Shown: positions 20,063-40,517 of the stretch, piece after piece | Position numbering within the stretch: position 1 is the first letter of the stretch | Layout of the letters: each line of letters starts with the position of its first letter | Virus record (IMG/VR): IMGVR_UViG_3300042090_001530 | Location: 1 to 64,000 of that record | DNA from: a virus | Lineage: Duplodnaviria > Caudoviricetes | Length of the DNA: 64,000 nt | Direction: 5' to 3' (one strand) | Notes under the pieces: model-generated | Database searches by the model: none | Told to the model about the DNA's origin: nothing | What the model saw: the letters and a program-made list of their open reading frames with translations, nothing else | Translations under genes and position numbers: made by a program

Positions 20063-20665
20063 ATGTCCGCACAGTCCGTCAGCATCACGCCCGACCTCGG
20101 GGACTATTTCGTCACGAGGACCAGCGGACCGCTGCTCGACCGGCTCGCCGCCTGGTTCATACGCTGGTGGACGGCCCGCAAGAACGCGCAGCGCGTGTGG
20201 AAGCCGAGTGACGTAAACCATGCCGGGACGTACGTCGGGCCCACCGAGGAGTACCCGGAGGGCGCGATCGTCGAGGCGGTTCGGCGCGTCCGGTTCAACT
20301 CCGTCAACGCCTACCCGGACGCGATCTGGTCCACCGGCCGGCTCCCCGCGCACCTGACGCCGACCGCCGAGCAGCGCGCCCGGATCGTCGAGTCCGCGAA
20401 GTGGATGGTCGGGGACCGTTACAACACAGTGGACCTGCTCGCGGTCGGGCTCGCGCAGCCCCGTGCGAAGCACGTCGTCAACAGCGACACCTGGTGGGCC
20501 AAGCGCCTAGATCATGACCATCGGGAGATTTGCAGCCAAGCAGTCGACCAGCAGTACCTTGACGCGAACATTCACCTGTTTGACGACGGACGGCTCGCGG
20601 GCTTGGTGGCGCCTGAAGACCTGGCCGATCTGCTCTCTGGCCAAGCGAAAGAGGCGGCGCAGTGA
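20063..20665 (+). CDS. permuted papain-like NlpC/P60 enzyme (YaeF/YiiX family)
   Basis: GDYFVTRT...NHAGTYVG...IVEA (His first), then VGDRYN and ICSQAV (Cys), then VAPEDL. Confidence 0.75.
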   Translation: MSAQSVSITPDLGDYFVTRTSGPLLDRLAAWFIRWWTARKNAQRVWKPSDVNHAGTYVGPTEEYPEGAIVEAVRRVRFNSVNAYPDAIWSTGRLPAHLTPTAEQRARIVESAKWMVGDRYNTVDLLAVGLAQPRAKHVVNSDTWWAKRLDHDHREICSQAVDQQYLDANIHLFDDGRLAGLVAPEDLADLLSGQAKEAAQ

Positions 20666-23576: not shown

Positions 23577-26500
23577 ATGTCGCTCACCACCATCACCGTG
23601 ACCGGTTCGTACCCGGCCGGAGCCGGCAGTGGCGTCGCCACCGGGTTCGTGACGTTCGTCCCGACCGCCCGGATCGTCAACGCCGCGGGCCACACCATCA
23701 TCCCGCAACTCCCGGTCCAGGTGCAGCTGCAGCTCGGCGCGTTCTCCCTGCCCAACGTCATCACCACGGACAACGCGGGCCTGAGCCCGGCCGGGTGGGC
23801 GTGGGAAGTGACGGAGTACATCTCCGGTGTCGCGGCGGACCCCTACTACGTCTTTATTCCCAGCACCTTCGGCGAGACCGTCGACCTGTCGCAGTTGACC
23901 GAGGCCACGCCCGGCCCGATCGTCACCGCGTACGCGAACCTCGGCGCCAGCAACACGTTCACGCTGGGAAACACGTTCGCTGCGGGCATCACGGTCGAGG
24001 GCGCGTTCGAACTCGACGGAACCGGCATCGCCAGCCCGCCCGGCGGCACCACCGAGTTCCTGCGCGCCGACGGCACCTGGGACGTCCCGGCCGGAGGCGG
24101 AGGCGGGGGAGTCACCCCGCCCGCCGGGGACCTCGGCGGCACCGCCGGAGACCCCACGGTCGTCTCCACGCACCTCGCCTCGCCGCTGCCCACCGCGCAG
24201 GGCGGAACCGGCGCGGCATCGCTCGCCGCGGCGGGCCTCGTGCAGGGCGCGAACAACCTCTCGGATCTCGCGTCCGCGAGCAGCGCCCGCACCAACCTCG
24301 GCTTGGGCACGGCGGCGACCCAGTCCGCGGCCGCGTTCGATGCGGCGGGCGCCGCAGCCACCGCGCAGGCGACCGCCGAGTCCTTCGCGACCAGCGCGGT
24401 CGGCGCCGAAACGACCCGAGCCGAGGCCGCGGAAGCACTGCTGGCCCCGCTGGCCAGCCCCGCACTGACCGGCTCCCCGACAGCGCCCACGAAGACCGCG
24501 CTGACCAACAGCACGGACATCGCCACCACCGCCTACACCGACGCGGCGGTAGCGGTAGAGACGACCCGAGCCGAAGCCGCCGAAGCACTCAAGGCGCCGC
24601 TGGCCTCGCCCGCGCTCACCGGATCCCCGACCGCGCCGACACAGACCACGGGCGACAACAGCACGAAACTCGCCACGGACGCGTTCGTCACGACCGCGGT
24701 CGCCACCGAAACCACGCGCGCCGAGACGGCCGAGGCCGCGCTGCTCCCGCTGACCGGCGGAACGATGACCGGCGCGATCGCGATGGGCGCCCACAAGGTC
24801 ACCGGCCTGACCAACGGCAGCGCCCCCACGGACGCGGCGGCCTACGGGCAGATCCCGACCTCCGCGGGCAGCATCGGCGGCCTGCTCGCCGCGAACAACC
24901 TCTCGGACGTGGCCTCGGCCGGAACCGCCCGCACGAATCTGGGCCTCGGCTCGGCCGCCGTACTCGCGGGTTCCGCAGTCGCGCAGACCGCCAACAACCT
25001 CGCCGACCTGGCCAACGAAGCCACCGCGCGCACCAACCTCGGACTCGGCGGCGCCGCCGTCCTCGCCGCGAGCGCCGTGGCCCAGACGGCGAACAACCTT
25101 TCGGATCTCGCGTCCGCAACTGCGGCCCGGACCAACCTGGGACTCGGTGCGGCGGCGACGGCGTCCCTGCCGCTGCCGCTCGCCTCCGGCGGCACGGGTC
25201 TGAACGCCGCGCCCGGAGCAGTCAGCGAGTCGCTGCTCGCGACCTCGACCAGCGCCGTGGCCTGGTCCACCCAGACCTACAACATCGTCGCGTACGGCGC
25301 CGACCCCACCGGCGCCGCCGACTCCACCACCGCGATCAACAGCGCGATCGCCGCCGCCGTCGCGGCCGGCGGCACCGTCCTGATCCCGCCCGGCACGTTC
25401 TCGACGACCGGCATCGTCATCAGCGGCGCATCCAAGTTCTGCATCCGCGCGGACCGCGGCGCCACCCTGTGGATCGCCGCCCCCACCAACGCCGCACCCA
25501 CGCAGGTCACCCGCAACATCCTCACGCTCGTCGGCTGCACGGACTTCGCGATCGAGAACCTGACGATCGACGGGCGCCGCGACGCCATCGCGCCCCTCAC
25601 GGTGCTCGCCGCCAACGCCGCCTCCGGGCAGGCGTTGGTGCACGTCGCCAACGGCGCGGCCGCCGCCTACAAAGTCGGGCAGGTCCTCAACGTCTGCGGC
25701 GGCTGGACCGTCGCGAGCGGCGCGCAGCAGAACCAGCAAGACCAGAACCTCACCATCGCGTCGATCACGCCCGGCACCAGCGGCGGCAACGACACGATCA
25801 CCTTCACCGCGAACCTCGCCAACGCCTACACGTCGGCCACCGGCACCCAGACCGACGGGTACGGGCCCATCGCCGGCAACGGCGGCTACATCACCCCATG
25901 GCAGACCGGCACCGCCACCATCGCCGGACGCGTCCTGACGCAGGAAGATCAGCAGTGCGGCATCCACCTGATCGCATGCACCAGGTTCCGCGTGTCCGGC
26001 TGCGAGATAACCGGCATGTGGGAATCCGGGATCCGCTGCGGCGACCATCTGCTCAACGGCTCCGCGCAGAACGACGGCGCCACCCTCGGCACCATCACCG
26101 GCAACATCATCACGCACTGCTACGACCAGGGCATCGGCCTGTGGTGCAGCGCGAACATGACCGTCACCGGCAACACGGTCACCGCAGCGGGCTGGGCCGG
26201 GATCTGCATGACCGGTTCCGACCAGTGCACCATCACCGGGAACGTCTCGACCAACAACACGCAGCTGATCCCCAACGGGCCCGGAGGGTACGGCGCCGCG
26301 ATCGAAGGCGGCCTCGGCAACGTCGTCTCAGCGAACCAGTTCAACGGCAACGCGTACTGCCCGATCCTGCTCACCGCACTCGGCACGATCCCCTTCGGCG
26401 GACCCGCCCAGGTCGCCACCACCGTCGCGTCCGGATCGAACACCGTCGCACTGCCCGCCACCGCCGTGAACCTCGCGTCCGCGACGGGGCTCGCCACGGC

Positions 26501-29390
26501 CGGGCAGGTCACGATCCTCAGCTCGGCCGGCGCCCAGCAGATCACCTACACCGGCGTCTCGGGCAACCAGCTCACCGGCTGCACCGGCGGCGTCGGCACC
26601 ATGTACACCGGGCAGCGCGTCACCCAGTACCCGGTCTTCACGAACAACGGCGCGACCCTAGCGGTCGGCTCCACGACCACGATCGTCTCCAACGGCGCCC
26701 TGTTCCAAGTCGGCGGCAAATACAGCATCGTCGACGGGCCGCGCACCGAACGCATCACCGTCACCGCGATCAGCACCAACACCCTGACGCTGCAGTACCC
26801 GACCTCGTTCCAGCACATCGACCAGTGCCAGATCGGCCAAGCGGTCGCCGAGTCCAACCAGATCCTCGGCAACTTCTGCTCCGGCGGCACCGACGCCGGC
26901 ATCAAACTCGCGTCGGCCATCAGGACCACGATCGACGACAACAGCCTGTACCAGATCGGCCTGCGGGGCATCGACGGGATCATCTGGTCCTCCGGCGGCC
27001 TCCAGCCCCCCTACGGCACGATCGTGTCCAACAACACGATCACCGCCCCGGACACGACGGGCAACGGCGCCGCATACTCGTCCATCGCCTTCGCCCAGAT
27101 GTCCGACCTGCAGATCTCCGGCAACAGGTGCGGCGGCGCGCTCAACGCCACCCAGGAATCATACGTAGCCCTGTTCATCCAGGCCGTCACCGACAGCGTC
27201 GTCTCCCGCAACATCGTCGCCGACACGTACGGCGTCGGAATGAGACTCGACGTCGTCAACGAATGGCCATGCAAGCGGGTCCGGGTCGCCGACAACCAGA
27301 TCTTGCGCACCGGCGGCGAAGGACTCGTCCTGTACGGCGGCCAGGAACTCCAGGTCGCCGGGAACGTCATCGAAGGCTGCGCCCCCAACTCCGGCGGCGG
27401 CTACGGCGGCGCCCTGGACGTACGCGGCGTGCAGAGCAGCATCATCGCCAACAACCTCGTCATCGACAACGGGCACGGCGGCATCAGCCTCGACAGCGCC
27501 ACCATCAACGGGGCCACCGTCTACACCAGCGCGAACACGTTCTCAGGCAACATCGCCGGCGACGACGGGCTCAACTACGACTGCTGGACCGGCGCCCACC
27601 AGCAGCAGGGCTCCGGAATCAAAGAGGTCTCGAGCGGCCAAGGCCCCAACGCCTACGACGGCAACATCGTCTTCGGGACCGGCGCCAACTTCTCGCTGAC
27701 CAGCCTCGGCAACACGTTCACCGGCACCTCGCTCGTGCCCGTCGCCGTCAAGACCGCGAACTACACGGCGAACCCCAGCGAGTTCGTGCCCTGCGACACC
27801 ACGACGGCCGCGCTCACCGTCACCCTCCCCACCGCGCCGACCGACCGCACCGTAGCCGGGGTCAAAGCCGTCACCCTCGGCGCAGGCCACAACGTCACCG
27901 TCGCCTGCGGCGGCACCGACGTGTTCAACAAGACCGGCGGCGGCACCACGGCCACGATCTCACTGCCCGGCCAAGCCCAGTTCTACCAGTACAGCGCCAG
28001 CCTCGGCGTCTGGTACATCGTCGGCGACGACCTGCCACTGACCCAACTCGACACCCGGTACGTCCTCGACTCGACGATGACCACGCTCGGCGACACCCTC
28101 TACGGCGGCGCGGCAGGCACCGCCACGCGCGTACCCGGCAACACCACGGCGACGAAGAACTTCTACACCCAGACCGGCACCGGCAGCGCATCCGCCGCGC
28201 CCGCCTGGGGCGCCATCGCCGCCGCCGACATACCCACCCTCAACCAGAACACCACTGGCACGGCAGGCGGCCTGAGCACCACCCTCGCGATCGGCTCCGG
28301 CGGCACGGGCCAGACAACCCAACAGGCAGCGATCAACGCGCTCACCGGCACCCAGAACGCCAGCACATACCTGCGCAGCAACGGCACCAACGCGAGCCTC
28401 TCCGCCATCCAAGCCAGCGACATCCCGACTCTCAACCAATCCACGACCGGGACGGCCGCAGGCCTCAGCACCACCCTGGCCGTCGGCAGCGGCGGCACCG
28501 GGCAGACCACACAGCAAGCGGCCATCAACGCCCTGACCGGGACGCAGTCCGCAGGCACCTACCTGCGCTCCAACGGCACCAACGCGGCCCTGGCGGCGAT
28601 CCAAGCCGCCGACGTCCCCACGTTGAATCAGTCCACCACCGGCAACGCCGCATCCGTCGGCGGCATCACCGTCACCGGAACACCCGCCACCGGCCAAGCC
28701 CTCGTCGCCACCTCCGCCACGGCCGCCGACTGGCAGGCCGCAGGCGCCGTCACCGCACTGACCCAATTCGGGACCGCCAGCGCCAACGGGTCCACCGGCC
28801 AATACTCCGACGCCGGGCACGTCCACGGCGCCCCCGACTCCTACACCTGGGACTCCCCGAAACAGCACGGCTTCAAAGAATGGCTCTTCCCGCTCCTCAC
28901 CAGCTACCTCAACCAGTCCTTCACCTCCGGCACCATCTACGGCGCCACCTTCATCGCGCAAACCAACTCCACCATCTCCAAAGTCGCCGTCGACGTCACC
29001 TCGGCCGCCGCCACCCCCACCGCCGGTGAAAACCTCATCGGGTTCTACACCGTCTCCGGCACCACCTGGACCCAGGCCACCGTCACCGGAGACCTCAGCA
29101 CCTGGGGCTCGACCGGCCTCAACGAATACACCTTCGGCGCCAGCCAAACCCTCGTGCCCGGCACCACCTACATGCTGCTGATGCTCTCCGTCGCCACCAC
29201 CGCCGTGCACCTCGGCGGATTCACCGGAAACAACAATTTCACCAACCTCGGCTGTTCCGCGACCGCCGCCCCGTGGATGAGGTTCTTCACCTACGGCACC
29301 AGCCAAACCGCGCTGCCCGCCTCGTTCACCGCGTCCACCAGCACCCTGAGCATCACGTCCGCGATCTTCCCGTGGGCCGGACTGCTCTAG
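23577..29390 (+). CDS. 1937-aa multidomain beta-helix tail-fibre/adhesin
   Basis: Actinophage minor-tail N-terminal domain; NNLSDLA..ARTNLGLG repeats; TAPT..DNST.LAT repeats; NIVAYGADPTG pectate_lyase_3 start; beta-helix repeats. Confidence 0.78.
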   Translation: MSLTTITVTGSYPAGAGSGVATGFVTFVPTARIVNAAGHTIIPQLPVQVQLQLGAFSLPNVITTDNAGLSPAGWAWEVTEYISGVAADPYYVFIPSTFGETVDLSQLTEATPGPIVTAYANLGASNTFTLGNTFAAGITVEGAFELDGTGIASPPGGTTEFLRADGTWDVPAGGGGGGVTPPAGDLGGTAGDPTVVSTHLASPLPTAQGGTGAASLAAAGLVQGANNLSDLASASSARTNLGLGTAATQSAAAFDAAGAAATAQATAESFATSAVGAETTRAEAAEALLAPLASPALTGSPTAPTKTALTNSTDIATTAYTDAAVAVETTRAEAAEALKAPLASPALTGSPTAPTQTTGDNSTKLATDAFVTTAVATETTRAETAEAALLPLTGGTMTGAIAMGAHKVTGLTNGSAPTDAAAYGQIPTSAGSIGGLLAANNLSDVASAGTARTNLGLGSAAVLAGSAVAQTANNLADLANEATARTNLGLGGAAVLAASAVAQTANNLSDLASATAARTNLGLGAAATASLPLPLASGGTGLNAAPGAVSESLLATSTSAVAWSTQTYNIVAYGADPTGAADSTTAINSAIAAAVAAGGTVLIPPGTFSTTGIVISGASKFCIRADRGATLWIAAPTNAAPTQVTRNILTLVGCTDFAIENLTIDGRRDAIAPLTVLAANAASGQALVHVANGAAAAYKVGQVLNVCGGWTVASGAQQNQQDQNLTIASITPGTSGGNDTITFTANLANAYTSATGTQTDGYGPIAGNGGYITPWQTGTATIAGRVLTQEDQQCGIHLIACTRFRVSGCEITGMWESGIRCGDHLLNGSAQNDGATLGTITGNIITHCYDQGIGLWCSANMTVTGNTVTAAGWAGICMTGSDQCTITGNVSTNNTQLIPNGPGGYGAAIEGGLGNVVSANQFNGNAYCPILLTALGTIPFGGPAQVATTVASGSNTVALPATAVNLASATGLATAGQVTILSSAGAQQITYTGVSGNQLTGCTGGVGTMYTGQRVTQYPVFTNNGATLAVGSTTTIVSNGALFQVGGKYSIVDGPRTERITVTAISTNTLTLQYPTSFQHIDQCQIGQAVAESNQILGNFCSGGTDAGIKLASAIRTTIDDNSLYQIGLRGIDGIIWSSGGLQPPYGTIVSNNTITAPDTTGNGAAYSSIAFAQMSDLQISGNRCGGALNATQESYVALFIQAVTDSVVSRNIVADTYGVGMRLDVVNEWPCKRVRVADNQILRTGGEGLVLYGGQELQVAGNVIEGCAPNSGGGYGGALDVRGVQSSIIANNLVIDNGHGGISLDSATINGATVYTSANTFSGNIAGDDGLNYDCWTGAHQQQGSGIKEVSSGQGPNAYDGNIVFGTGANFSLTSLGNTFTGTSLVPVAVKTANYTANPSEFVPCDTTTAALTVTLPTAPTDRTVAGVKAVTLGAGHNVTVACGGTDVFNKTGGGTTATISLPGQAQFYQYSASLGVWYIVGDDLPLTQLDTRYVLDSTMTTLGDTLYGGAAGTATRVPGNTTATKNFYTQTGTGSASAAPAWGAIAAADIPTLNQNTTGTAGGLSTTLAIGSGGTGQTTQQAAINALTGTQNASTYLRSNGTNASLSAIQASDIPTLNQSTTGTAAGLSTTLAVGSGGTGQTTQQAAINALTGTQSAGTYLRSNGTNAALAAIQAADVPTLNQSTTGNAASVGGITVTGTPATGQALVATSATAADWQAAGAVTALTQFGTASANGSTGQYSDAGHVHGAPDSYTWDSPKQHGFKEWLFPLLTSYLNQSFTSGTIYGATFIAQTNSTISKVAVDVTSAAATPTAGENLIGFYTVSGTTWTQATVTGDLSTWGSTGLNEYTFGASQTLVPGTTYMLLMLSVATTAVHLGGFTGNNNFTNLGCSATAAPWMRFFTYGTSQTALPASFTASTSTLSITSAIFPWAGLL

Positions 29391-30512: not shown

Positions 30513-32165
30513 ATGACCGCCGTCCTCGACTGGGCTGAACACGCGGCCCGCGAATTCGAAGACGACGCACCCAAGCCCCGGCACCGCTTCTACGACGACC
30601 CGGTCGGATTCGCCGACACCTGCATCCGCTGGCCCCCCGATGCGGGACTGACCGCCTACCAGCGCGACGTGCTCGCCGCACTGCCCACCAAACGCAAAGT
30701 ATCCGTGCGCGGACCGCACGGCCTGGGCAAGACCACCACTGCGGCCGTGGCCGTCCTGTGGTTCGCCCTGACCCGCGAACTCTCCGGACGCGACTGGAAG
30801 ATCCCCACGACTGCCGGGGCATGGCGCCAGCTCGAATTTTATCTCTGGCCGGAGATAAAGAAGTGGGCGCGGCAGTTGGACTGGAACGCCCTCGGCTGCG
30901 AACCGCTCTCGGAGCGCACCGAACTGCTCACCCTGAACATCAAACTCGCGCACGGGCACGCGTTCGCCGCCGCGTCCGACAACCCGTCCCTGATCGAAGG
31001 CGCGCACGGCGACAGCATCCTATACGTCTTCGACGAATCCAAGGCGATCATCCCGGCGACGTTCGACGCCGCCGAAGGTGCGTTCTCCGGCGCGGACGCC
31101 ACCGGCAACCTCGAGGCATACGCCCTTGCGATGTCCACCCCAGGCGAACCCAACGGCCGCTTCTACGAGATCCACTCGCGCAAACCGGGCCTAGAAGACT
31201 GGTGGGCACGGCACGTCACCGTCGACGAGGCGATCGCCGCCGGTCGCATCAGCAAGTCCTGGGTGGAACAGAGGCGCCTACAGTGGGGCGCCGACAGCGC
31301 GCTCTTCGCCAACCGCGTCCTCGGCGAATTCCACTCCAGCGACGAAGACGGCGTCATCCCGCTCGCCTGGGTAGAGGCCGCCAACGAACGCTGGCGCGCC
31401 TGGGACGACGACGGCCGTCCCGAAATGCCGGGGCCCCGCACTGTCGGAGTCGACGTCGCAAGGTCTGGATCCGACAAGACCGTGATGGCGCTCCTCGACG
31501 GCGCCGTGCTCACCGAACTGCGCCACAGCTCCCTTGAAGACACGATGCAGACCACCGGCCGCGTCATCGGAATCGTCACCGCCCACCCGGACCGGCGCCC
31601 GATCGTGGACGTCATCGGCATCGGCGCCGGCGTCGTCGACCGGCTGCGCGAGCAAGGCGTCAGCGTCGAGGCGTTCAACGCCAGCGAAGGCACCGACCGC
31701 AAGGACCGATCGGGCGAGTTGGGCTTCACCAACACGCGCAGCGCCGCGCACTGGAACCTCAGGGAACTGCTCGATCCGGCCTACGGCGCCGAGTTGGCGC
31801 TCCCGCCCGACGACCGGCTCACCGGAGACCTGACCGCCCCGCACTGGCGGGTGATGTCCGGAGGCCGGATCCAGGTGGAATCCAAGGACGAGATCCGAAA
31901 GAGGCTCGGCCGGTCCACCGACGACGGCGACGCCGTAGTCCAAGCCACATGGGACGGCGACGGCACCGACGCGCAAGCCTGGATCGACCACTTCCGGCGC
32001 AAAGCCGAAGCCGTCGGCATGACACCACGTGCGGCCATCGGCGCGGCATCCGCAGAACCCGAACCGACCCCCGAACCCGAACCCCCCACCAGCGACATAG
32101 ACCTCCGGCGGGCAGCACGCACAGCGGCACTACGCGGCGGCCGGTTCACGACGTCCTCACGCTGA
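30513..32165 (+). CDS. terL: terminase large subunit
   Basis: Walker A GPHGLGKTT, Walker B VFDE, MSTP coupling motif, nuclease GVDVAR and DDGDA. Confidence 0.9.
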   Translation: MTAVLDWAEHAAREFEDDAPKPRHRFYDDPVGFADTCIRWPPDAGLTAYQRDVLAALPTKRKVSVRGPHGLGKTTTAAVAVLWFALTRELSGRDWKIPTTAGAWRQLEFYLWPEIKKWARQLDWNALGCEPLSERTELLTLNIKLAHGHAFAAASDNPSLIEGAHGDSILYVFDESKAIIPATFDAAEGAFSGADATGNLEAYALAMSTPGEPNGRFYEIHSRKPGLEDWWARHVTVDEAIAAGRISKSWVEQRRLQWGADSALFANRVLGEFHSSDEDGVIPLAWVEAANERWRAWDDDGRPEMPGPRTVGVDVARSGSDKTVMALLDGAVLTELRHSSLEDTMQTTGRVIGIVTAHPDRRPIVDVIGIGAGVVDRLREQGVSVEAFNASEGTDRKDRSGELGFTNTRSAAHWNLRELLDPAYGAELALPPDDRLTGDLTAPHWRVMSGGRIQVESKDEIRKRLGRSTDDGDAVVQATWDGDGTDAQAWIDHFRRKAEAVGMTPRAAIGAASAEPEPTPEPEPPTSDIDLRRAARTAALRGGRFTTSSR

Positions 32166-32177
32166 GGGGGCGCCCCG

Positions 32178-35100
32178 GTGGTATCGCGCGAACTCGCCCT
32201 CCCCGAACCCGCGGCCGTAACCCGGCAGCGAGCCAGGGCGGTACGCGCACAAGCCGCCGCCTCACCGCGCGCCCGAGTCGCCAAAGTCTGGGGCACCGCA
32301 GTACCCACTGCGGTCCAGGCCGGTGAAGCCGCGTCGCAGATGACCCCGGCGAGCCCGTTCGCACCGGGCGAGCCGGTCAGCCCCTATGACGGATTCAGCC
32401 GTACCCCGCGCACATTCGACTACATCCCGCAGTACAACGTCGCCACCCGGCCGCGCACCCACGAGCGCGTAGCGTTCAGCACCCTGCGCGGGCTGATCGA
32501 GTCCTATGACATCGCCCAAGTCGCGATCTGGCACCGGATCGACTCGATCCGCTCCCTCGAATGGTCGCTGGTCGCAGACGACGGCTACCAGGGCGATGTA
32601 ACGGGTGCGGTCGCGCTCGGCATGGCCGCCCTGAAGAAGCCGGACAGGAAAAACCCTTTCGACGCGTGGCTCGCCGAGTTCCTCTTCGACGTGCTCGCAT
32701 TCGACGCTGGCGCCCTGTACCGGATGCGCAACCGCGCCGGACAGGTCATCGGCCTCAAGCCGGTAGACGGCACGATCCTGGCGCCGCTCCTTGACTACTG
32801 GGGCGACCCGCCGGAGCCGCCCGCCCCGGCCTACGTGCAGTACGCCAACGGGCTGCCGTGGAACTGGCTGACGGCCGACGACCTGATCTACCAGCCCTTC
32901 CGGAAGATCACCAACTCGCCGTACGGCCGCGCGCCCCTCGAGTCGATCCTGCTCAACGCGAACACCGACTTGAGGTTCCAGGCCTACTTCCTGCAGCGGT
33001 ACACCGAAGGCAACCTGCCCGCCGCGTTCGCGTCCGCACCGGAGACCTGGACCCCGCAGCAGATCGAATCGTTCCAGGAGTACTGGGACGGGTTCATCCT
33101 CGGCGACCAGTCGTTCAAGAACCAGATCCGGTGGATCCCGCCCGGAAGCAAGATCGAATGGTCGAACGAGAAAGACTTCACCGACGCGTTCTCGCTGTTC
33201 ATGATGCGAAAGACCCTAGCGGCCTACCACGTGGTGCCCGCAGACCTGGGCTTCACGGAAAGCGTCAACAAGTCGGCAGGGGAGACGCAGACCGACGTTC
33301 AGCATCGCATCGGCGACGCGCCCCTCGCTAAGCACGTCTCCAGCATCCTCACCGGATTCCTGCAAGACGACCTACGCCTTCCCCTCAAGCACCAGTTCGA
33401 CTTCGGCGAGGAGCAGGACGACCGTCTCGCCACTGCGCAGGCCGACCAGGTGTACATCCAGAACGCCGTCGTCTCCCCGTCCGAGATCCGCGAACTGCGG
33501 TTCGGCCTCGGCGAGCCCGACGGGCGCCCCGTGCCGCGTTACATCTTCTCCTCGCGTGGCGGCGCAGTGCCGCTGGCCCCGCTGTTCGCGGTCGCCGGCC
33601 CCATCGACCCCGCATCCGGCGCGCCTCTCCCTGGCGCGCCGCTACCGAAGAAGCCCTTCAGTCCCATCGAGGGGGTTGAACCGAACCCGGCCCCGCCGAC
33701 GAAGCCGCTCGCGGTGCAAATCTACGGGGACCTGAATCCGCCCACGCCCAATCCGGTGGTCGGTGTCGCCCCGGCGCCGCACGCTGTGATGCCTGGCGCA
33801 GCCGCGCCTCAGGCCGCCGCAACGCCCGTCGCCAAGGACGGCGCGGCAGCCCCGGCGGCTGGGTCCGGCTCGACCGCCGGGATCACCGCCGCGACCGGCA
33901 TCTACTCGTATGACCTAGGCACCGAGCCCGTCATCATGCCCGACGCCGACGACATCGACTACGAAGTCGCCAAGTCGGAACTCGCCACCTACCGGCGGTA
34001 CGTCAAGGCACGCAAGCGCAGCGGACGCTGGAAAGACTTCGAGTTCGCGGCCATCGACCGCGTCACCGCGCACCGGCTCAACGACGCCGGACGCTTGGAG
34101 ATCCGGAAGGCTGGCGGCGTCATCGCGTGCGCCGGCCTCGCAGTCCTCGCCGAGGACACCGGCCGCGTCCTCATGCTCCAGCGCGGGCTCGACCCGAACG
34201 ACCCCGCCTCCGGGACCTTTGAATTTCCTGGCGGGCACGTCGAGGACGGAGAAACCCCGCTCGCGGCTGCCGAGCGCGAATTCCAAGAGGAAACAGGGCT
34301 CCTCCTCTCGGCCGACGCACTGACCAACGCCAACCCCGACGCAACCTGGACCAGCGCCGACCGCGTCTACCGCGGGTTCGTCGTCACCATCCCCGTCGAA
34401 GCGGCGCTGCCGATCGCGGAACGCGGCCAGGTCGCCAATCCCGACGACCCGGACGCTGACGCAGTCGAAATGATCGCCTGGTGGGATCCGAGATTGTTGC
34501 CGGCCAACCCGGCGGTGCGCCCGGAACTGCTCGCGTCCATGGACGACGTACAGCGGGCGATCGCGATCGCGCAACCGTGCGACACGGTCCCTGCAGAGGT
34601 CGCGGCTCCCGTAGAGAAGGCCGCGCCGATGCTCGGGGAAGTGCCGGGGCTCACCAAGCGCTCCGGCATGATCTCGCTGGACCTCCCGGCAGGTCTCATC
34701 CCCGTCGTGCCCGGAGGCTTGAACGATCACCATGTGACCGTGGTCTATCTCGGGAAAGACCTCGACGATGAGGACTTTGCCGCAGCCTGCGACCGTGCCG
34801 AAACCGCCGCGACGGCCATGGCCGGACCGCTCACCGGCAGCATCAGCGGCCGAGGAGTGTTCCCGCCCTCAGCGTCCAGCGACGGGAAGATCCCCGTGTT
34901 CGCCGAGGTCGAACTGCCCGGCATCAGCGCGCTCCACGCGGAACTCGAAGACCTGTCCGCGTCCGAGCACGCCAGCTATCACGCGCACGTCACCCGCACG
35001 TACGCCGAGCCCGGCGACCAACTGCCGGACCCGCTCCCGTATACGCCGGTGACTTTCACGCACCTCACGGTCCATCGCGGCGACGAGCAGATGAGCTTCC

Positions 35101-35996
35101 CGTTCGGGCAGCGCGGACTCGGCGTGATGAAGGCCAGCGGCGGTGAACCCGACGGCCCAAAAGCTGACGCCTCCGCCAAGGAGGCGTCCAAGGCGTGGCC
35201 CGGCTGGGAACACGACCTCCAAGCCGCCCGGCACTGGGCCGACAGACTCAACAACGGATACACCAACGCATTAAGCCGGACGCACGCCGAACGCATCGCA
35301 GCCTCGTTCATCGCCGCACACCCGCAACCGAAAACCGAGAAGAAGCCGACCAAAGCCGAGACCGCGGCGGTAGCGGCAGCACTCCTCGCCGCCGCGCTCG
35401 CACACCTCGAAAACCAAGGCCTCGACCTCACCAGCCATGCCACCGAGAACCTGCGCGGTATCTACGCCGACGGCTACTTGATCGGCGCCGCATCCGGCAA
35501 CGCGGTCATCGACGGCGGCGCGCCCGCGCTCGGTAACTGGGCGCCCGGCAAAACCGCCGACGCGCACCACCTCATCGAAACCCTCGCGCTCGGCGCCGGG
35601 CTCTCCGCGCTCCTGCTACGAGCACCCGAAGTAGCAGCGGAGATGTCGAACACGCGCATGACCGCCATGGCCACAGCGCTCGCCGCCGGCGCGGCATCCG
35701 GATCGGGGCCGGCCGTCATCGCCGGAACCCTAGTCGCGGTCCTCGCCGCGGGCTGGCGATCCCTCAGATCCGCGATCACCGGAATCACCACCGGATCCAG
35801 CGCCGGAGCGAGCGACACCTACCAGAAGCGCGGCGTCGAACTCGGCCAATGGCTGCTGGACCCCAGCAGCAAGAGCTGTCCGAACTGCATCGCCAACGCC
35901 AACGCCAAGCCGCGCCCACTCGGGCAGCCGTGGCCCAGCGGCAGCGCATATCCGCCAGAGCATGATCACTGTCGGTGCGAAATCGGCCCTGCGTAA
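32178..35996 (+). CDS. portal protein fused to NUDIX hydrolase, 2H phosphoesterase and MuF-like minor head domain
   Basis: N-terminal portal follows terL. Nudix box GHVEDGETPLAAAEREFQEETG at 34233-34298; HVT motifs at 34731 and 34986; C-terminal CPNC...HDHCRC. Confidence 0.85.
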   Translation: MVSRELALPEPAAVTRQRARAVRAQAAASPRARVAKVWGTAVPTAVQAGEAASQMTPASPFAPGEPVSPYDGFSRTPRTFDYIPQYNVATRPRTHERVAFSTLRGLIESYDIAQVAIWHRIDSIRSLEWSLVADDGYQGDVTGAVALGMAALKKPDRKNPFDAWLAEFLFDVLAFDAGALYRMRNRAGQVIGLKPVDGTILAPLLDYWGDPPEPPAPAYVQYANGLPWNWLTADDLIYQPFRKITNSPYGRAPLESILLNANTDLRFQAYFLQRYTEGNLPAAFASAPETWTPQQIESFQEYWDGFILGDQSFKNQIRWIPPGSKIEWSNEKDFTDAFSLFMMRKTLAAYHVVPADLGFTESVNKSAGETQTDVQHRIGDAPLAKHVSSILTGFLQDDLRLPLKHQFDFGEEQDDRLATAQADQVYIQNAVVSPSEIRELRFGLGEPDGRPVPRYIFSSRGGAVPLAPLFAVAGPIDPASGAPLPGAPLPKKPFSPIEGVEPNPAPPTKPLAVQIYGDLNPPTPNPVVGVAPAPHAVMPGAAAPQAAATPVAKDGAAAPAAGSGSTAGITAATGIYSYDLGTEPVIMPDADDIDYEVAKSELATYRRYVKARKRSGRWKDFEFAAIDRVTAHRLNDAGRLEIRKAGGVIACAGLAVLAEDTGRVLMLQRGLDPNDPASGTFEFPGGHVEDGETPLAAAEREFQEETGLLLSADALTNANPDATWTSADRVYRGFVVTIPVEAALPIAERGQVANPDDPDADAVEMIAWWDPRLLPANPAVRPELLASMDDVQRAIAIAQPCDTVPAEVAAPVEKAAPMLGEVPGLTKRSGMISLDLPAGLIPVVPGGLNDHHVTVVYLGKDLDDEDFAAACDRAETAATAMAGPLTGSISGRGVFPPSASSDGKIPVFAEVELPGISALHAELEDLSASEHASYHAHVTRTYAEPGDQLPDPLPYTPVTFTHLTVHRGDEQMSFPFGQRGLGVMKASGGEPDGPKADASAKEASKAWPGWEHDLQAARHWADRLNNGYTNALSRTHAERIAASFIAAHPQPKTEKKPTKAETAAVAAALLAAALAHLENQGLDLTSHATENLRGIYADGYLIGAASGNAVIDGGAPALGNWAPGKTADAHHLIETLALGAGLSALLLRAPEVAAEMSNTRMTAMATALAAGAASGSGPAVIAGTLVAVLAAGWRSLRSAITGITTGSSAGASDTYQKRGVELGQWLLDPSSKSCPNCIANANAKPRPLGQPWPSGSAYPPEHDHCRCEIGPA

Positions 35997-36022
35997 CGAC
36001 CCGAGCCGATACGGAGGTGCCC

Positions 36023-36643
36023 GTGGATCGCTACGACACCCCCGGATGGGAAGGCTCGGTCGGCCCATTCCCCGACGACTACACCAAGCCCCACGTATAC
36101 GCACGCGACATCTGCTCCGGCGCCGGCAACTGCGTCTGCGGCATAGGGCTACCCGACGAGATCCACGTCCAAGCAGCGCCCGGCATCGACATCCCCGGGA
36201 GAGCAATCGTCGTCCCGTCCCGCTACCTGGGCAAGTCCGCCGAGGAACAGCGCTACGTGCTCGGCGTTGGGTATCAACCGGGCCCCGACCCGCGAATCGC
36301 CCGCGGCGCCGACGGGTACCGCGACTACTTCACTGCCGAGGAACTCGAGAAGGCCGCATGGTCCTTCCTCAAGAGCGGCGGCCAGATAGGGCTGTTCCAT
36401 GAGGACGGCACCCTCGGACATGCGACGCCCGTCGAAAGCTACGTGCATCGTGCCCCCGACTGGGATCAGGGCAACGGCATTGTCATCAAGACCGGCACCT
36501 GGCTCATCGGCGCCATCTGTGACGACATCGCGTGGCAGCTAGTCAAATCCGGACGTGTCACCGGCTTCTCGCCGCAGGGGTTCGCGAAGCGCCGTCGCCC
36601 CTCCATCCCACCGAACTCCACGAGGGAGCTGTGCCGTGTCTGA
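36023..36643 (+). CDS. XkdF-like putative prohead serine protease
   Basis: EEQRYVLGVGYQP...ELEKAAW...GLFH...PVESY...GTWL...VKSGRVTGFSPQG; GGAGG RBS. Confidence 0.8.
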   Translation: MDRYDTPGWEGSVGPFPDDYTKPHVYARDICSGAGNCVCGIGLPDEIHVQAAPGIDIPGRAIVVPSRYLGKSAEEQRYVLGVGYQPGPDPRIARGADGYRDYFTAEELEKAAWSFLKSGGQIGLFHEDGTLGHATPVESYVHRAPDWDQGNGIVIKTGTWLIGAICDDIAWQLVKSGRVTGFSPQGFAKRRRPSIPPNSTRELCRV

Positions 36644-38933
36644 CGCGCAACCGGAGGAGTGGACGGAACTCTACGACCCTGAGGTGCCAGAGATGCACAT
36701 GGTCGGCAAAGGGGCTAACGGCTTCCCCGAATTCCTGATCATCAAGCAGGACGCCGAGGGCGGCCTGTTCGAAGCCGACTACGTACGCGAACTCATTGCC
36801 AAGGCCGACGCGGAGCACCCCCCGGCCACTGACCCGCGGGAGACGGTGACCATGAGCGGCAGCCCCGCAGCGATCGCAGCACTCATCCACGGCGCCGCAG
36901 TGCGCAAGGCCACGCCGGAGCCTGCGCCCGTCGAAGACGACGTGGCCAAAGCGGAGGAATCCACCGCGACCCAGAACGACTTGCCCGACTCTGCCTTCGC
37001 GTACATCGAAAGCGGTGGCACGAAGGACGAGCACGGCCGCACCGTCCCGCGGTCCCTGCGGCACTTCAACATCCACGACGCCGCGCACGTCCGCAACGCC
37101 CTGAGTCGAGCACCGCAGTCCCCGTTCGGCGACAAGGCCATGCCCAAGATCCGCGCCGCCGCGAAGCGCTTCGGGGTCGACGTATCCAAGGCCGAACAGG
37201 CCGCCCCCGAAACCAACGAGGTGAGCAAAGACATGGACGGTTCCGCGGGCATGCCGCTGGACGAAGGCATGGACGGGATGGACCCGACGGTCATCCTCGC
37301 GATGCCCGAAGAGGAAGCCCCGGGCGACCCGAACGACCCCGGCTCCCCGGCATGGGAGTCGATCGACGCCGCGACGGCCCTCAAGTGGACCGCGATCGCC
37401 GCCCGGCTGCGCTCCGCCCTCGGCATCATGTCCGACCGGGAGATGCTCGAAGCCGCCACCGCCGACCCGTCCGACGCCGACAACGCGATGGATCTCGACG
37501 ACGCCGCGTGCGCCGTGGACTTCGTGATCTCGACGCTCGCCCCGTTCGCGGTCGACGAGCAGGCGGAAGCCGACGAGGGCACCATGGCGATGGAGATGGT
37601 CGGCAAGGCGATGAGCACCCTCGACCCGGCCCACCTCGACACCGTCGAGACCCTCGGCACCGTCCGCAAGGCCGGGCGCGCCCTGAGCTCCGCGAACGAG
37701 AGCGCACTGCGCGCCGCGGTCAAGGCGCTCCAGCAGATCCTCGCGTCGCTGCCCCGCGCGGCCGACGCGCCCGCCCCGGCATCCGAGGGCGCCATGACGA
37801 AGGAGAGCGGCCTGCCGGTCGCCAAGACCGCGAACGAGGAGCCCGACATGCCGCAGACCACGACCGCCGAAGACACCACCACCGCATCTGGGCAGGCGCC
37901 CGCCATGGGCAGTGCATCCCCGGACCCGCAGCCCGTCGCCGGGACCGCCGTCACCGACGTGACGAAGACCGCCGACGCGCCGGTCGACCAGGCGGCGTTC
38001 GCCGAGATCGTCAAGCAGCTCGCGGCCGTGCTCAACTCGCAGGCCCCGGTCGCCAAGACCGATGGTGCCGCGAATGCAGAGCAGACCCCGGCCGCGCCGA
38101 TCGCCAAGGCTGAGGAGACTACGGCCGTCGAGACTGCGGCGGACGAGCCCGTCATCAAGGCCGAGCAGCCCGCGACCCCCGACGCCGCGCCCGTCGCGGA
38201 GCCGGCCAACGTGCAGAAGGCTGAGAAGCCGCCGCAGGTGGCGATCTACGACGCCAACGGCAACCTCGTCGGCACCGTCGACCCCGGCGAGATCACCATG
38301 CTCGCCCCCGCCAGGGCCCCCGAGCCCGCAGCCAAGGCCGACGACGCGGCACCGGACGAGCCCGCGGCCCCCGCCGCCGAGGCCCCGGCCACCCCGCCCA
38401 CAGATCTCGCCCCGCAGCCTCCGGCCGCGGCAGGCGTACCCGCCGACGCCGTCCCCGCCGACGACGCCATGACCAAGCAGGCCGCCAACGGCCAGCCCGA
38501 CAGCAACACCGCGACGCTCGAAAGCAGCGCCCCCGCCGACATCCTCAAGCAGGCCCTCGCCGACTACAGCGCCACACAGGGGCAGGCACTCGCCGCCCAG
38601 ATGGCGGACGTCCGCAAGGGACTGGAGGACCGCAACGCGGCGCTGGAAGAGGTCGTCAAGAACCTCCAGGCACAGATCGAAGAGCGCATCACTCGCATCG
38701 AGAACGCCCCCCCCGTCTACGCCATCGCCTCCAACGGCGCCATGCCCGACCCGCGCCACCTGCGCGGCCAGAACCAGGGCGCCCTCGCGGTCGACCCGGC
38801 CATCGGCCCCATGCTCAAGGCCCGCCTCGCCAACAGCGACGACGCCACCGAGCAGAAGCAGATCGCCGACGAGATGACCGAACGGGCCAACACCCTGTTC
38901 CAGCAGCTCCAGGCAGGCGCCCGGCAGCGGTAA
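36636..38933 (+). CDS. scaffold / head-assembly protein with DUF6582-like domain
   Basis: NDLPDSAFAYIESGG..DE.GRTVPRSLRHF.IHDAAHVRNALSR; long P/A-rich region and C-terminal coiled coil; lies between protease and capsid. Confidence 0.7.
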   Translation: MSDAQPEEWTELYDPEVPEMHMVGKGANGFPEFLIIKQDAEGGLFEADYVRELIAKADAEHPPATDPRETVTMSGSPAAIAALIHGAAVRKATPEPAPVEDDVAKAEESTATQNDLPDSAFAYIESGGTKDEHGRTVPRSLRHFNIHDAAHVRNALSRAPQSPFGDKAMPKIRAAAKRFGVDVSKAEQAAPETNEVSKDMDGSAGMPLDEGMDGMDPTVILAMPEEEAPGDPNDPGSPAWESIDAATALKWTAIAARLRSALGIMSDREMLEAATADPSDADNAMDLDDAACAVDFVISTLAPFAVDEQAEADEGTMAMEMVGKAMSTLDPAHLDTVETLGTVRKAGRALSSANESALRAAVKALQQILASLPRAADAPAPASEGAMTKESGLPVAKTANEEPDMPQTTTAEDTTTASGQAPAMGSASPDPQPVAGTAVTDVTKTADAPVDQAAFAEIVKQLAAVLNSQAPVAKTDGAANAEQTPAAPIAKAEETTAVETAADEPVIKAEQPATPDAAPVAEPANVQKAEKPPQVAIYDANGNLVGTVDPGEITMLAPARAPEPAAKADDAAPDEPAAPAAEAPATPPTDLAPQPPAAAGVPADAVPADDAMTKQAANGQPDSNTATLESSAPADILKQALADYSATQGQALAAQMADVRKGLEDRNAALEEVVKNLQAQIEERITRIENAPPVYAIASNGAMPDPRHLRGQNQGALAVDPAIGPMLKARLANSDDATEQKQIADEMTERANTLFQQLQAGARQR

Positions 38934-39014: not shown

Positions 39015-40517
39015 ATGAGCGCCCTCATGCAGGACGTGACCGAGGAGACCATCGCCGCGATCAGCAAGGCTCAGACCGCGGGCATCCTTGAGAACACGGG
39101 TATTTACAGCTATGACCTGTCCGAGCTCGTCACCCTGATCCCCGTGGTGACGCCCTTCCGGGACCACGTGTCGCGGAAGCAGTCCCCTGATGGTAACCCG
39201 TTTGCCGTATGGCGAGCGATCATGAACCTGACGGACAGCCAGCCCGACCCGTCCATGGGCTTCGACTACGCAGCCAACGAAGCCCTGTTCGACGAGCAGG
39301 ACTTCCAGGCCCGATACAAGCCCACCGGCCTCGCCGGCCTCGTCACCCAGGACGCGTTCGACCTCGCCAAGGGATACGCCGACCCGTATGCGGTCGCCAC
39401 CTTCAACGTCCTGAACCAGGTCCTGATCGGCGACGACCGCAAGCTCCTCGGCGGCCAGTCCTTCGCCCTCGCCGCCTCCACCGCGCCCACCATCACCCAG
39501 CACGCCACCGGCGGCACCATCGGCGCCGTCACCCCCTACGTCGGCGTCGCAGCGCGAACCGGCTCCGGCTACTACTACGGCTCCGGCAACAGCCAAGGCG
39601 CATCCAACAGCACCACCTTCGGCTCCGGCAGCACCAACTCGCTCACCGCCAGCACCACCGCGCAGCGCGGCGCCGTCGCCTACGACTGGTTCCAGTCGCC
39701 CACCGGGCTCGCCGGCTCGTGGCTCTACTACACCACCACCACCGTCAACACCGTGACGATGACCTCCATCATCACCTCCCCCAACGCCCTACCCGCCACC
39801 CTGCCCGACCTCCAGACCAACTTCTGGAAGGGCTCCAACACCAGCGCCACCCCCACCTACAACGCCGCCGCCGACAACGGCAGCGCCAACGCCCCCGACT
39901 ACGACGGATTCCTCGCGAGCCTCTCTGGCGACTTCAGCGGCACCGGCCAGTGGGTCCAGCCCGGCACCGGCACCGCCAACCCCAGCGTCGTCAACACCCT
40001 CAACGGCGCCGCCCTCACCCTCACCGGCGGCAGCATCACCGAGATCGAGCAGCTGCTGTTCCTGCCGCTGTGGAACCAGGTCAAGACGTCGCCCACCGCG
40101 CTCATGGTCAACGCCGCGCAGGCTCAGGAGATCGCCAACCTCGTCCTCGGCTCCAACAGTGCGACCACCTTCCTCAACACCGACGCATCCGGCCGTATCT
40201 CCGTCACCGCTGGTGGCCGGGTCGGCGAGATCGTCAACGCCCCGGCAGGCGGCGTCACCGTGCCCATTGAGGTGCACGTTTCCCTGCCGCCTGGCACCAT
40301 CATCGCCCGCAGCGACCGGGTCCCGTTCCCGCAGGCGAACATCGCATCAGTGCTCGAATACAGGGCGCTGCGCGATACGGCGCAGTACGACTACGGGATC
40401 TCCCGCATCGCGGGAACCCCCGGCGGAGGCCCTCGCCGTGAATTCGAGATCAGGAGCGTGGGTGCCTTCCTGAATCGTGCGCCCGTAGCGAACGCGGTAC
40501 TCAACTGCATTTCGTAG
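39015..40517 (+). CDS. major capsid protein with inserted beta-rich domain
   Basis: Position after the scaffold, AAAGAGG RBS, HK97-like N and C parts, T/S/G-rich insertion. Confidence 0.75.
   Translation: MSALMQDVTEETIAAISKAQTAGILENTGIYSYDLSELVTLIPVVTPFRDHVSRKQSPDGNPFAVWRAIMNLTDSQPDPSMGFDYAANEALFDEQDFQARYKPTGLAGLVTQDAFDLAKGYADPYAVATFNVLNQVLIGDDRKLLGGQSFALAASTAPTITQHATGGTIGAVTPYVGVAARTGSGYYYGSGNSQGASNSTTFGSGSTNSLTASTTAQRGAVAYDWFQSPTGLAGSWLYYTTTTVNTVTMTSIITSPNALPATLPDLQTNFWKGSNTSATPTYNAAADNGSANAPDYDGFLASLSGDFSGTGQWVQPGTGTANPSVVNTLNGAALTLTGGSITEIEQLLFLPLWNQVKTSPTALMVNAAQAQEIANLVLGSNSATTFLNTDASGRISVTAGGRVGEIVNAPAGGVTVPIEVHVSLPPGTIIARSDRVPFPQANIASVLEYRALRDTAQYDYGISRIAGTPGGGPRREFEIRSVGAFLNRAPVANAVLNCIS

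Follow-up and report, generated by a model that had tools for sequence, protein, structure and literature searches.

The portal gene of a 202-kb soil or wetland actinophage encodes, within a single open reading frame (ORF), a portal domain, a Nudix hydrolase cassette, a 2H phosphoesterase cassette and a MuF module. The ORF is located at positions 32178-35996 of the 64-kb stretch of DNA that was analysed (64,000 nucleotides; referred to as the window hereafter), which is the first part of a 202,490-bp virus record (IMG/VR record IMGVR_UViG_3300042090_001530; Duplodnaviria, Caudoviricetes). On balance, the whole is best explained if this fusion is the phage's only portal, built as a head-internal carrier of "polyvalent" cargo. 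That the two enzymes are cargo packaged in the head is highly probable, because the fusion is the sole portal, its catalytic residues are conserved, the cargo is modular, a prohead protease gene is adjacent, and the gene order is like that of Arthrobacter phage Sonali. The record has a CheckV completeness of 98% and a G+C content of about 68%, and its nearest protein relatives are found in Streptomyces, Kitasatospora and Streptacidiphilus genomes and in soil and wetland metagenomes.

Domain structure of the portal fusion

The ORF and its parts, given in amino acids (aa) where these are defined, are as follows.

32178-35996, + strand: whole portal-Nudix-2H-MuF ORF, a single open frame of 1272 aa plus stop
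32355-33587, + strand (aa 60-470): portal domain (PF04860, PHROG 2662; 44% identity to Sonali gp3)
33588-33878, + strand (aa 471-567): Pro/Ala-rich flexible tether, assigned by composition
33879-34112, + strand (aa 568-645): conserved adaptor ("pre"), present in all portal-cargo relatives and ending in IRKA
34113-34547, + strand (aa 646-790): Nudix hydrolase cassette (PF00293), with the Nudix box at 34233-34301
34548-34658, + strand: Nudix-2H linker with a VEKA motif at 34608-34628
34659-35117, + strand (aa 828-980): 2H phosphoesterase cassette, with H852 at 34731-34733 and H937 at 34986-34988
35118-35993, + strand (aa 981-1272): MuF (SPP1 gp7-like) module, assigned by homology via Sonali gp3

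An earlier interpretation of the letters without database searches (the sequence-only reading) had described a 1272-aa ORF with a portal and a Pro/Ala linker, and both were borne out. PF04860 matches aa 123-440 with 41.1 bits against a cut-off of 39.1, PHROG 2662 matches at an E value of 4e-52, and Ala and Pro together make up 45% of aa 470-575. The adaptor that follows the tether holds a look-alike of the N-terminal arm of the capsid protein (aa 568-580) and a basic helix (aa 601-623). The Nudix box, which had been placed at aa about 686-707, was confirmed as complete (GX5EX7REUXEEXGU, aa 686-708) within a PF00293 match of 60.9 bits over aa 655-774. In an alignment of 41 relatives, E692, R700, E701 and E705 are invariant and E704 is nearly so, and the structural model of this cassette has a Nudix fold with a predicted local distance difference test score (pLDDT) of 89.

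The 2H domain had been recognised by HxT motifs at aa 852 and 937. All four residues concerned (H852/T854 and H937/T939) were found to be invariant among 42 aligned relatives, and the AlphaFold model of the domain has a pLDDT of 91.6. A Pfam search with aa 790-1010 alone matched no family; for this region, PHROG 2659 was reached at an E value of 1e-6 and TIGR02258 at 0.027, and relatives at 45-65% identity match PF13563. With phmmer, 720 relatives of the 2H domain were found at E ≤ 1e-3 among 1.8 billion representatives.

The MuF module opens with VMKASGG, which is followed by a conserved PKADASAKEAS...WPGW segment. The MuF-like CxxC...HxxCRC end that had been noticed earlier is indeed present, as CxxC at aa 1234-1237 (35877-35888) and HDHCRC at aa 1262-1267 (35961-35978). 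PF04233 scores 14.2-18.2 bits on the ORF itself, under the cut-off of 29.6. Sonali gp3 scores 38.5 bits on this family, aa 988-1271 of the ORF align to the C-terminus of Sonali gp3 at an E value of 6e-13, and PF04233 is carried by many family members. In the domain-by-domain check with profiles and Foldseek, the portal and Nudix parts were thus above their Pfam cut-offs and the 2H fold was recovered from the model, while the MuF part stayed below its cut-off and the substrate classes were not separated.

Integrity of the fusion

A programmed frameshift yielding a short portal was considered and set aside (no search for slippery sites was made), as the portal, Nudix, 2H and MuF parts are simply in frame. 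The G+C content at third codon positions (GC3) is 0.80-0.89 in each domain, which argues for a single coding frame throughout. One Logan contig (70,208 bp, even depth of 16.5) covers positions 32000-36700 without differences or gaps; its run may be the sample of the window's assembly, and the comparison tests the assembler rather than the sample. The order portal-adaptor-Nudix-2H-MuF is kept in six further fetched proteins, three of which (54-72% identity) come from other data sets. In addition, the cultured Arthrobacter phages Sonali and Mufasa8 have portal-Nudix-MuF proteins of 995 and 1000 aa at the same gene position. The identical contig of a second assembler and the relatives of like architecture answer the concern, raised in the sequence-only reading, that the fusion might be an assembly artefact. 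The fusion is genuine and intact, and in its family the catalytic residues are under purifying selection.

The start of the ORF was also considered. The GTG at 32178 is preceded by a ribosome-binding site (GAGGGGG), and no further start codon occurs between it and M55, the start chosen by the gene caller. Since the alignment with Sonali gp3 begins at aa 33, ahead of M55, and the ribosome-binding site lies upstream of the GTG, the M55 start is probably too short and the GTG at 32178 is probably the true start.

A modular family of relatives

For an overview of the family, 272 fetched relatives were typed with profiles seeded from this protein. Among them, 79 have the order portal-adaptor-Nudix-MuF, 20 have portal-adaptor-2H-MuF, and 7 have portal-adaptor-Nudix-2H-MuF; further orders, with 2H ahead of Nudix or with cargo after MuF, were also found. 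In the full-length alignment, the cassettes are inserted between constant flanks: the upstream flank is the adaptor ending in ...RLxVRKAAG, and the downstream flank is the start of the MuF module, xAKAxGG...PKADASAKEAS...WPGWxHD. The Nudix and 2H domains are exchangeable cassettes between fixed flanks in a large family of actinophage and prophage proteins. In one metagenomic relative (P0008; 1129 aa, 65% identity), the Nudix core is precisely deleted, and the adaptor, the first Nudix strand and the Nudix-2H linker are retained. Judged from this alignment, P0008 is a natural cassette-loss variant.

The adjacency of Nudix and 2H recurs in both orders, also outside portal proteins, and 29 of 150 representatives of the 2H domain carry this type of Nudix. 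The same Nudix and 2H types are found in metagenomic proteins of 1.9-2.9 thousand aa (P0182, P0130, P0202 and P0127), where they are accompanied by GNAT domains and as many as four Arr-type (rifampin ADP-ribosyltransferase-like) domains, and an ADP-ribosyltransferase (ART; PF03496) sits in the portal protein of one relative. In the cyanophage Pam4 of Pseudanabaena (ON014756.1), the capsid maturation protease has a Nudix segment 57% identical to that of the ORF; thus, the head-cargo Nudix cassette appears in phages of very different hosts. In this terminase-portal phage, a single polypeptide unites at least two domains of the effector type and ties them to head proteins. At the level of sequence, this domain mix and its modularity are the signature of "polyvalent" head-associated effector proteins.

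Two side observations were made among the related sequences. The portal is interrupted by intein or LAGLIDADG elements (PF14528, PF14890) in P0067, P0079, P0083, P0092, P0122 and P0038. The soil and peat runs X2, X6 and X8 gave only short, diverged fragments (contigs of 150-220 bases), which provide no basis for inference on habitat or distribution.

Genome setting

When the phage's own 202-kb genome was searched for a second portal, Nudix, 2H or MuF, none was found, so every portal subunit would be made with cargo. The genes on both sides of the fusion are as follows.

30513-32165, + strand: large terminase (TerL), immediately upstream of the portal fusion (PHROG 2, E = 3.9e-32)
35975-36643, + strand: XkdF-type prohead protease, immediately downstream of the portal fusion (PF14550, 61.7 bits; PHROG 3017 head maturation protease, E = 5.7e-20)
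36555-38933, + strand: scaffold-like, acidic Ala/Pro-rich protein with two VRKA motifs, in a position syntenic with Sonali
39015-40517, + strand: major capsid protein (MCP), 39% identity to the Sonali MCP (E = 1e-102)

The order of TerL, portal fusion, XkdF protease, scaffold-like protein and MCP is that of Sonali, and the adjacent XkdF protease, which the sequence-only reading had already named, is borne out by its PF14550 score. The protease ORF has an additional Cys-rich N-terminal region of about 80 aa that matches PHROG 15751. It overlaps the scaffold-like ORF by about 90 bases, and the start positions of the two are uncertain. Two very large proteins with a right-handed beta-helix (PF13229/NosD-like; 967 and 1937 aa) are encoded immediately ahead of the terminase region, at 20617-23520 and 23577-29390. 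This is an odd location for depolymerase- or fibre-like proteins.

Linker motifs and a capsid-arm look-alike

Over its 1272 residues, the protein has exactly three copies of the motif [VILMT]-x-K-[AG], each of them at a cassette boundary.

34098-34118, + strand: IRKA (aa 642-645), just ahead of Nudix
34608-34628, + strand: VEKA (aa 812-815), between Nudix and 2H
35121-35144, + strand: VMKA (aa 983-986), just after 2H

Among 135 portal-clade relatives, the density of this motif is 26 per 1000 aa in the boundary windows versus 2.6 elsewhere, a 10-fold difference. The narrower form [VI]RKA is found five times in the phage proteome of about 53,000 aa, and three of the five are in the portal fusion and the scaffold-like protein; in the latter, VRKA stands at aa 120 and 374 of the stop-to-stop frame 36543-38933. 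In the giant proteins with Arr-type domains, which form a separate clade, a QREA-type motif follows each 2H module. By their positions, the xKA motifs look like sites that the prohead protease may process. The motif could not be linked to processing of the capsid protein, as it is present neither in the MCP nor in the terminase.

Another feature is that aa 560-593 of the portal fusion (33855-33956) resemble the N-terminal arm of the phage's own MCP (aa 15-52; 39057-39170), with TxGI..xTGIYSYDL in common. The identity between this tether/adaptor region and the arm is 45% over 38 residues (pairwise E = 2e-6). A similar likeness to the capsid arm was found in three other phages or prophages for which both the portal fusion and the capsid gene were available (L009, L010 and L011; 60-65% identity over 15-17 residues); the portal fusions of Sonali and Mufasa8 were searched for it as well, and there it is absent. 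The look-alike may represent a protease site or a scaffold-docking site that the two proteins share. The linker motifs and the capsid-arm look-alike are new observations of this analysis.

Proposed mode of action and points against it

If the C-terminus of the portal faces the capsid interior, each head would receive up to 12 copies of either enzyme upon assembly of the dodecamer. The XkdF protease would probably free the enzymes at IRKA, VEKA and VMKA, at the capsid-arm-like TGIYSYDL segment, or at both. The freed enzymes would then leave with the DNA, or act once the DNA enters the next host. There, the Nudix enzyme would cut the pyrophosphate bonds of nucleoside diphosphates linked to another moiety (NDP-X) and the 2H enzyme would cut cyclic or 2'-5'/3'-5' phosphodiesters, both in small nucleotide molecules. 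The likeliest targets would be host immune signals or products derived from nicotinamide adenine dinucleotide (NAD) and ADP-ribose. Release and activity of the cargo in the newly infected cell come close to an even chance in our judgement, while immune signalling nucleotides as the targets can be proposed only tentatively.

A more specific version is doubtful. In it, Nudix and 2H together would be a two-step eraser of immune nucleotides, for example, of the ADP-ribose-based signals of Thoeris/TIR systems and of cyclic or 2'-5'-linked oligonucleotides. The two enzymes would be cut out by XkdF at the xKA and capsid-arm-like sites and injected ahead of or with the DNA, and signalling would be disarmed before phage gene expression. 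The capsid-arm mimic would then be a previously unrecognised signal common to the capsid protein and the cargo.

Several points weigh against packaged, released and immune-directed cargo. As the portal ring remains with the capsid, the cargo could be delivered only after cleavage, for which the motifs are the only indication. The xKA motifs emerged post hoc from sequences that are related and not independent, and their role may be structural; the VMKA site belongs to the beginning of the MuF module, which is conserved with any cargo, and a search of the MCP and the terminase of this phage for the motif found none. The existence of P0008, a close relative without the Nudix core, suggests that the Nudix cassette is dispensable. 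The C-terminus is assigned to MuF by transitive homology through Sonali gp3. As to substrates, the modelled 2H domain is closest to the housekeeping-type LigT/ThpR and cyclic phosphodiesterase (CPDase) enzymes, about 4-5 Z units above Acb1, and enzymes acting on RNA 5' ends appear to dominate the structural neighbours of the modelled Nudix domain. The proposal of injected anti-signalling enzymes made in the sequence-only reading therefore stands in part: the context fits it (sole portal, conserved residues, modular cargo, adjacent protease), while its analogy with Acb1 does not hold well, and the idea had already been published.

Possible substrates and alternative explanations

Three partly overlapping readings of the substrates can be distinguished: degradation of immune signals, clean-up of NAD/ADP-ribose products, and processing of RNA ends. 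In the structural ranking of the 2H model, the CPDase of Deinococcus radiodurans (drCPDase; 5h7e) came first with a Z score of 15.4, followed by Thermus TT0787 and E. coli LigT at about 14-15; the LigT/ThpR/CPDase group as a whole spans 13.5-15.4, and Usb1 has 13.5. Lower matches were the plant CPDase for ADP-ribose 1'',2''-cyclic phosphate (Appr>p) and AKAP18 (about 11.5), viral 2',5'-phosphodiesterases (about 11), Acb1 (7t26/7t27; 9.9-10.3) and the poxvirus phosphodiesterase for cyclic GMP-AMP (9.7). According to its model, the domain is a 2H enzyme by fold and not a member of the Acb1 family; the analogy with Acb1 is weak, as Acb1, at a Z score of about 10, ranks under LigT, CPDase, Usb1, AKAP18 and the viral 2',5'-phosphodiesterases. 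For the Nudix model, a Foldseek search of PDB and Swiss-Prot placed BdRppH, RppH, NudC, Dcp2 and MutT2 nearly level (E about 1e-7, template-modelling (TM) score 0.5-0.63), and the substrate classes were not separated; RNA-decapping and NAD-cap enzymes are no less represented among the neighbours than ADP-ribose-cleaving or MutT types. No NCBIfam equivalog for Nudix reached its cut-off, and all four pieces of the ORF gave sub-threshold matches only.

One alternative is the processing of RNA ends. Here, the Nudix enzyme would act like RppH, NudC or Dcp2 on RNA 5' ends (triphosphate or NAD caps) and the 2H enzyme on 3' ends, as a ThpR-like 2',3'-cyclic phosphodiesterase or a Usb1-like trimmer; the outcome would be that host transcripts decay as infection begins, or that RNAs cleaved by RNase toxins of the host are healed. 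The best structural matches of the Nudix model (BdRppH, RppH, NudC, Dcp2) and of the 2H model (drCPDase, LigT/ThpR, Usb1; Z scores of 13.5-15.4) agree with such a role, and a Usb1-like RNase is among the options proposed for polyvalent 2H domains in Iyer et al. 2017 (PMC5512222). However, the Nudix ranking is undiscriminating, with MutT types intermixed at the same E values and TM scores, and no NCBIfam equivalog was reached. Moreover, the fusion includes no RNA ligase or kinase, and in Iyer et al. 2017 (PMC5512222) no ligases were found associated with 2H domains of this type; RNA ends that are healed but never sealed amount to no repair. Processing of RNA ends is thus an unlikely explanation, though one of some weight.

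Another alternative is the clean-up of ADP-ribose derivatives. In this case, 2H would open cyclic phosphates (ADP-ribose 1'',2''-cyclic phosphate, 2',3'-cyclic nucleoside monophosphates) and Nudix would split the ADP-ribose pyrophosphate, so that products made by TIR, sirtuin or ART-type defence enzymes, or by ARTs of the phage itself, would be neutralised. The giant proteins with up to four Arr-type ART domains besides the same Nudix and 2H types, the ART (PF03496) in the portal protein of a relative, and the recurrence of the Nudix-2H adjacency in both orders are in its favour; the adjacency and the ART-rich relatives would lean towards nucleotide and ADP-ribose chemistry. Iyer et al. 2022 (PMC9503650) also predict synergy for Nudix-cRec, with cRec and 2H as functional equivalents, and put the head-fused Nudix in the T4 NudE clade (ADP-ribose, diadenosine triphosphate, flavin adenine dinucleotide). 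In our comparison, however, the alignment of this Nudix with T4 NudE by hhalign (E = 2.6e-7 over 66 columns around the box) reflects generic homology of the box region and neither confirms nor rejects a NudE-like placement. The ORF of this phage has no ART, and the cyclic phosphate of ADP-ribose is not known to serve as an immune signal in bacteria. In the case of signals of the Thoeris type as targets, this explanation overlaps with the favoured one; as a separate explanation, we regard it as distinctly unlikely.

Both enzymes might instead act in the producing cell and not after injection. The fusion to the portal would then only couple their timing and amount to the late structural proteins, which are frequent triggers of abortive infection, and the capsid copy would be inert, or trimmed and lost. 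The gene is a late one in the head operon, exit of the cargo from the capsid is a prediction, and the countering of immunity aimed at the packaging apparatus is raised as an option in Iyer et al. 2022 (PMC9503650). Nevertheless, a free-standing late gene would serve equally, the repeated fusion of Nudix to portal, MuF and prohead protease points to capsid targeting, and the MuF partner of SPP1 acts at the start of infection, so we regard this possibility as quite improbable. Finally, the probability that the fusion is a chimeric assembly, or that its enzyme domains are decaying and now mere non-functional spacers, is negligible: the metagenomic origin of the window and the failure of Pfam to detect 2H directly are outweighed by the Logan contig identical across the whole stretch, the like architecture in cultured and metagenomic relatives, the invariant catalytic residues and the uniform GC3.

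Significance

If head-packaged cargo is injected as proposed, the pre-loaded enzymes would act before the host can signal. For polyvalent proteins, this idea dates back to a publication of 2017, and the value of the present finding lies in its testable details, namely, the cassette boundaries, the motifs, the capsid-arm mimic, the loss variants and the cultured relatives, rather than in the concept. The family is a practical test bed: it is large, its cassettes are cleanly bounded, loss variants occur naturally, and some members are in culture, namely, Sonali and Mufasa8 with Nudix, and phages of Gordonia and Microbacterium whose head proteins bear 2H. From the linker motifs and the mimic, the places where the cargo would be cut or docked can be predicted precisely enough to be checked. 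For annotation, the lesson is that labels such as "portal protein" or "RNA ligase" hide enzyme cargo.

Comparison with known systems

The functional idea is an already published hypothesis and is not new. Fusions of 2H to MuF or portal proteins are described in Iyer et al. 2017 (Iyer, Burroughs, Anand, de Souza and Aravind; PMC5512222), where a Usb1-like RNase activity or the degradation of defence nucleotides is proposed. Iyer et al. 2022 (PMC9503650) report fusions of T4 NudE-type phage Nudix domains to MuF, to the portal and to the capsid peptidase. The 2H domains fused to MuF or portal are there held to be probably packaged and injected against SMODS/CBASS (cyclic-oligonucleotide-based antiphage signalling), cyclic-mononucleotide and CRISPR signalling, and synergy of Nudix with domains that open cyclic phosphates is predicted on ADP-ribose cyclic phosphate. 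In both papers (PMC5512222, PMC9503650), these are proposals without experiments. Our literature search for experimental work on portal/MuF-linked Nudix or 2H cargo enzymes, proteomic and injection data included, found none, and a search for the 2025 structure of a phosphodiesterase from Burkholderia phage BCSR5 gave nothing of use. The ORF is like the polyvalent proteins of these authors in that several effector domains in one polypeptide are tied to a portal or MuF protein. As far as it was consulted, the text of the two papers mentions neither a joint occurrence of Nudix and 2H between portal and MuF nor the boundaries of the cassettes, the motifs in the linkers or the mimic of the capsid arm.

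The closest cultured counterparts are gp3 of Sonali (995 aa) and gp3 of Mufasa8 (1000 aa), which have the same position and the same order of portal, linker, Nudix and MuF, with 44% identity in the portal and in Nudix; one of the two is annotated as "portal and MuF-like fusion protein". They differ from the present ORF in having neither the 2H cassette nor the capsid-arm-like motif of the tether, and their genomes are about 60 kb, as compared with 202 kb here. MuF proteins are known carriers of variable enzymatic domains; in classical MuF toxins, unlike here, the cargo follows MuF. For the MuF prototype, SPP1 gp7, it is known that the portal carries the protein into the procapsid and that gp7 supports the start of infection, and only about 25% of the virions without gp7 are infectious (PMC6316719). 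The C-terminal module of the ORF is homologous to SPP1 gp7 and Mu gpF, but here MuF and the portal are covalently linked parts of one protein, with MuF on the C-terminal side of the cargo.

As to the enzymes, LigT/ThpR and Deinococcus CPDase (PF13563/PF02834) are the best structural match of the 2H domain, with two HxT motifs and a root-mean-square deviation of 2.3-3.4 Å over 138-151 residues. Their identity to it is only 16-21%, and the 2H of the ORF, which is part of a structural protein, matches no Pfam or NCBIfam family directly. Acb1 of T4 and FBB1 shares with it the phage origin, the 2H fold and the two catalytic His residues; the Foldseek match, however, is at rank 50 (E = 9.6e-3), a relationship at the sequence level is absent, and Acb1 is made early as a free protein and is no part of the capsid. 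To our knowledge, all phage destroyers of immune signals known so far (Acb1, Apyc1, ring nucleases) are made after infection begins. The T4 Alt and internal proteins, which enter the prohead, are trimmed there by its protease and are later injected along with the DNA, resemble the mode proposed for the cargo of the ORF. They differ in that an N-terminal capsid-targeting sequence takes the place of a portal fusion, and in that the enzymes and the protease family are unrelated. The ORF is best placed in the known class of portal/MuF-linked polyvalent cargo proteins, and it is distinguished by carrying both Nudix and 2H between portal and MuF, in a 202-kb actinophage.

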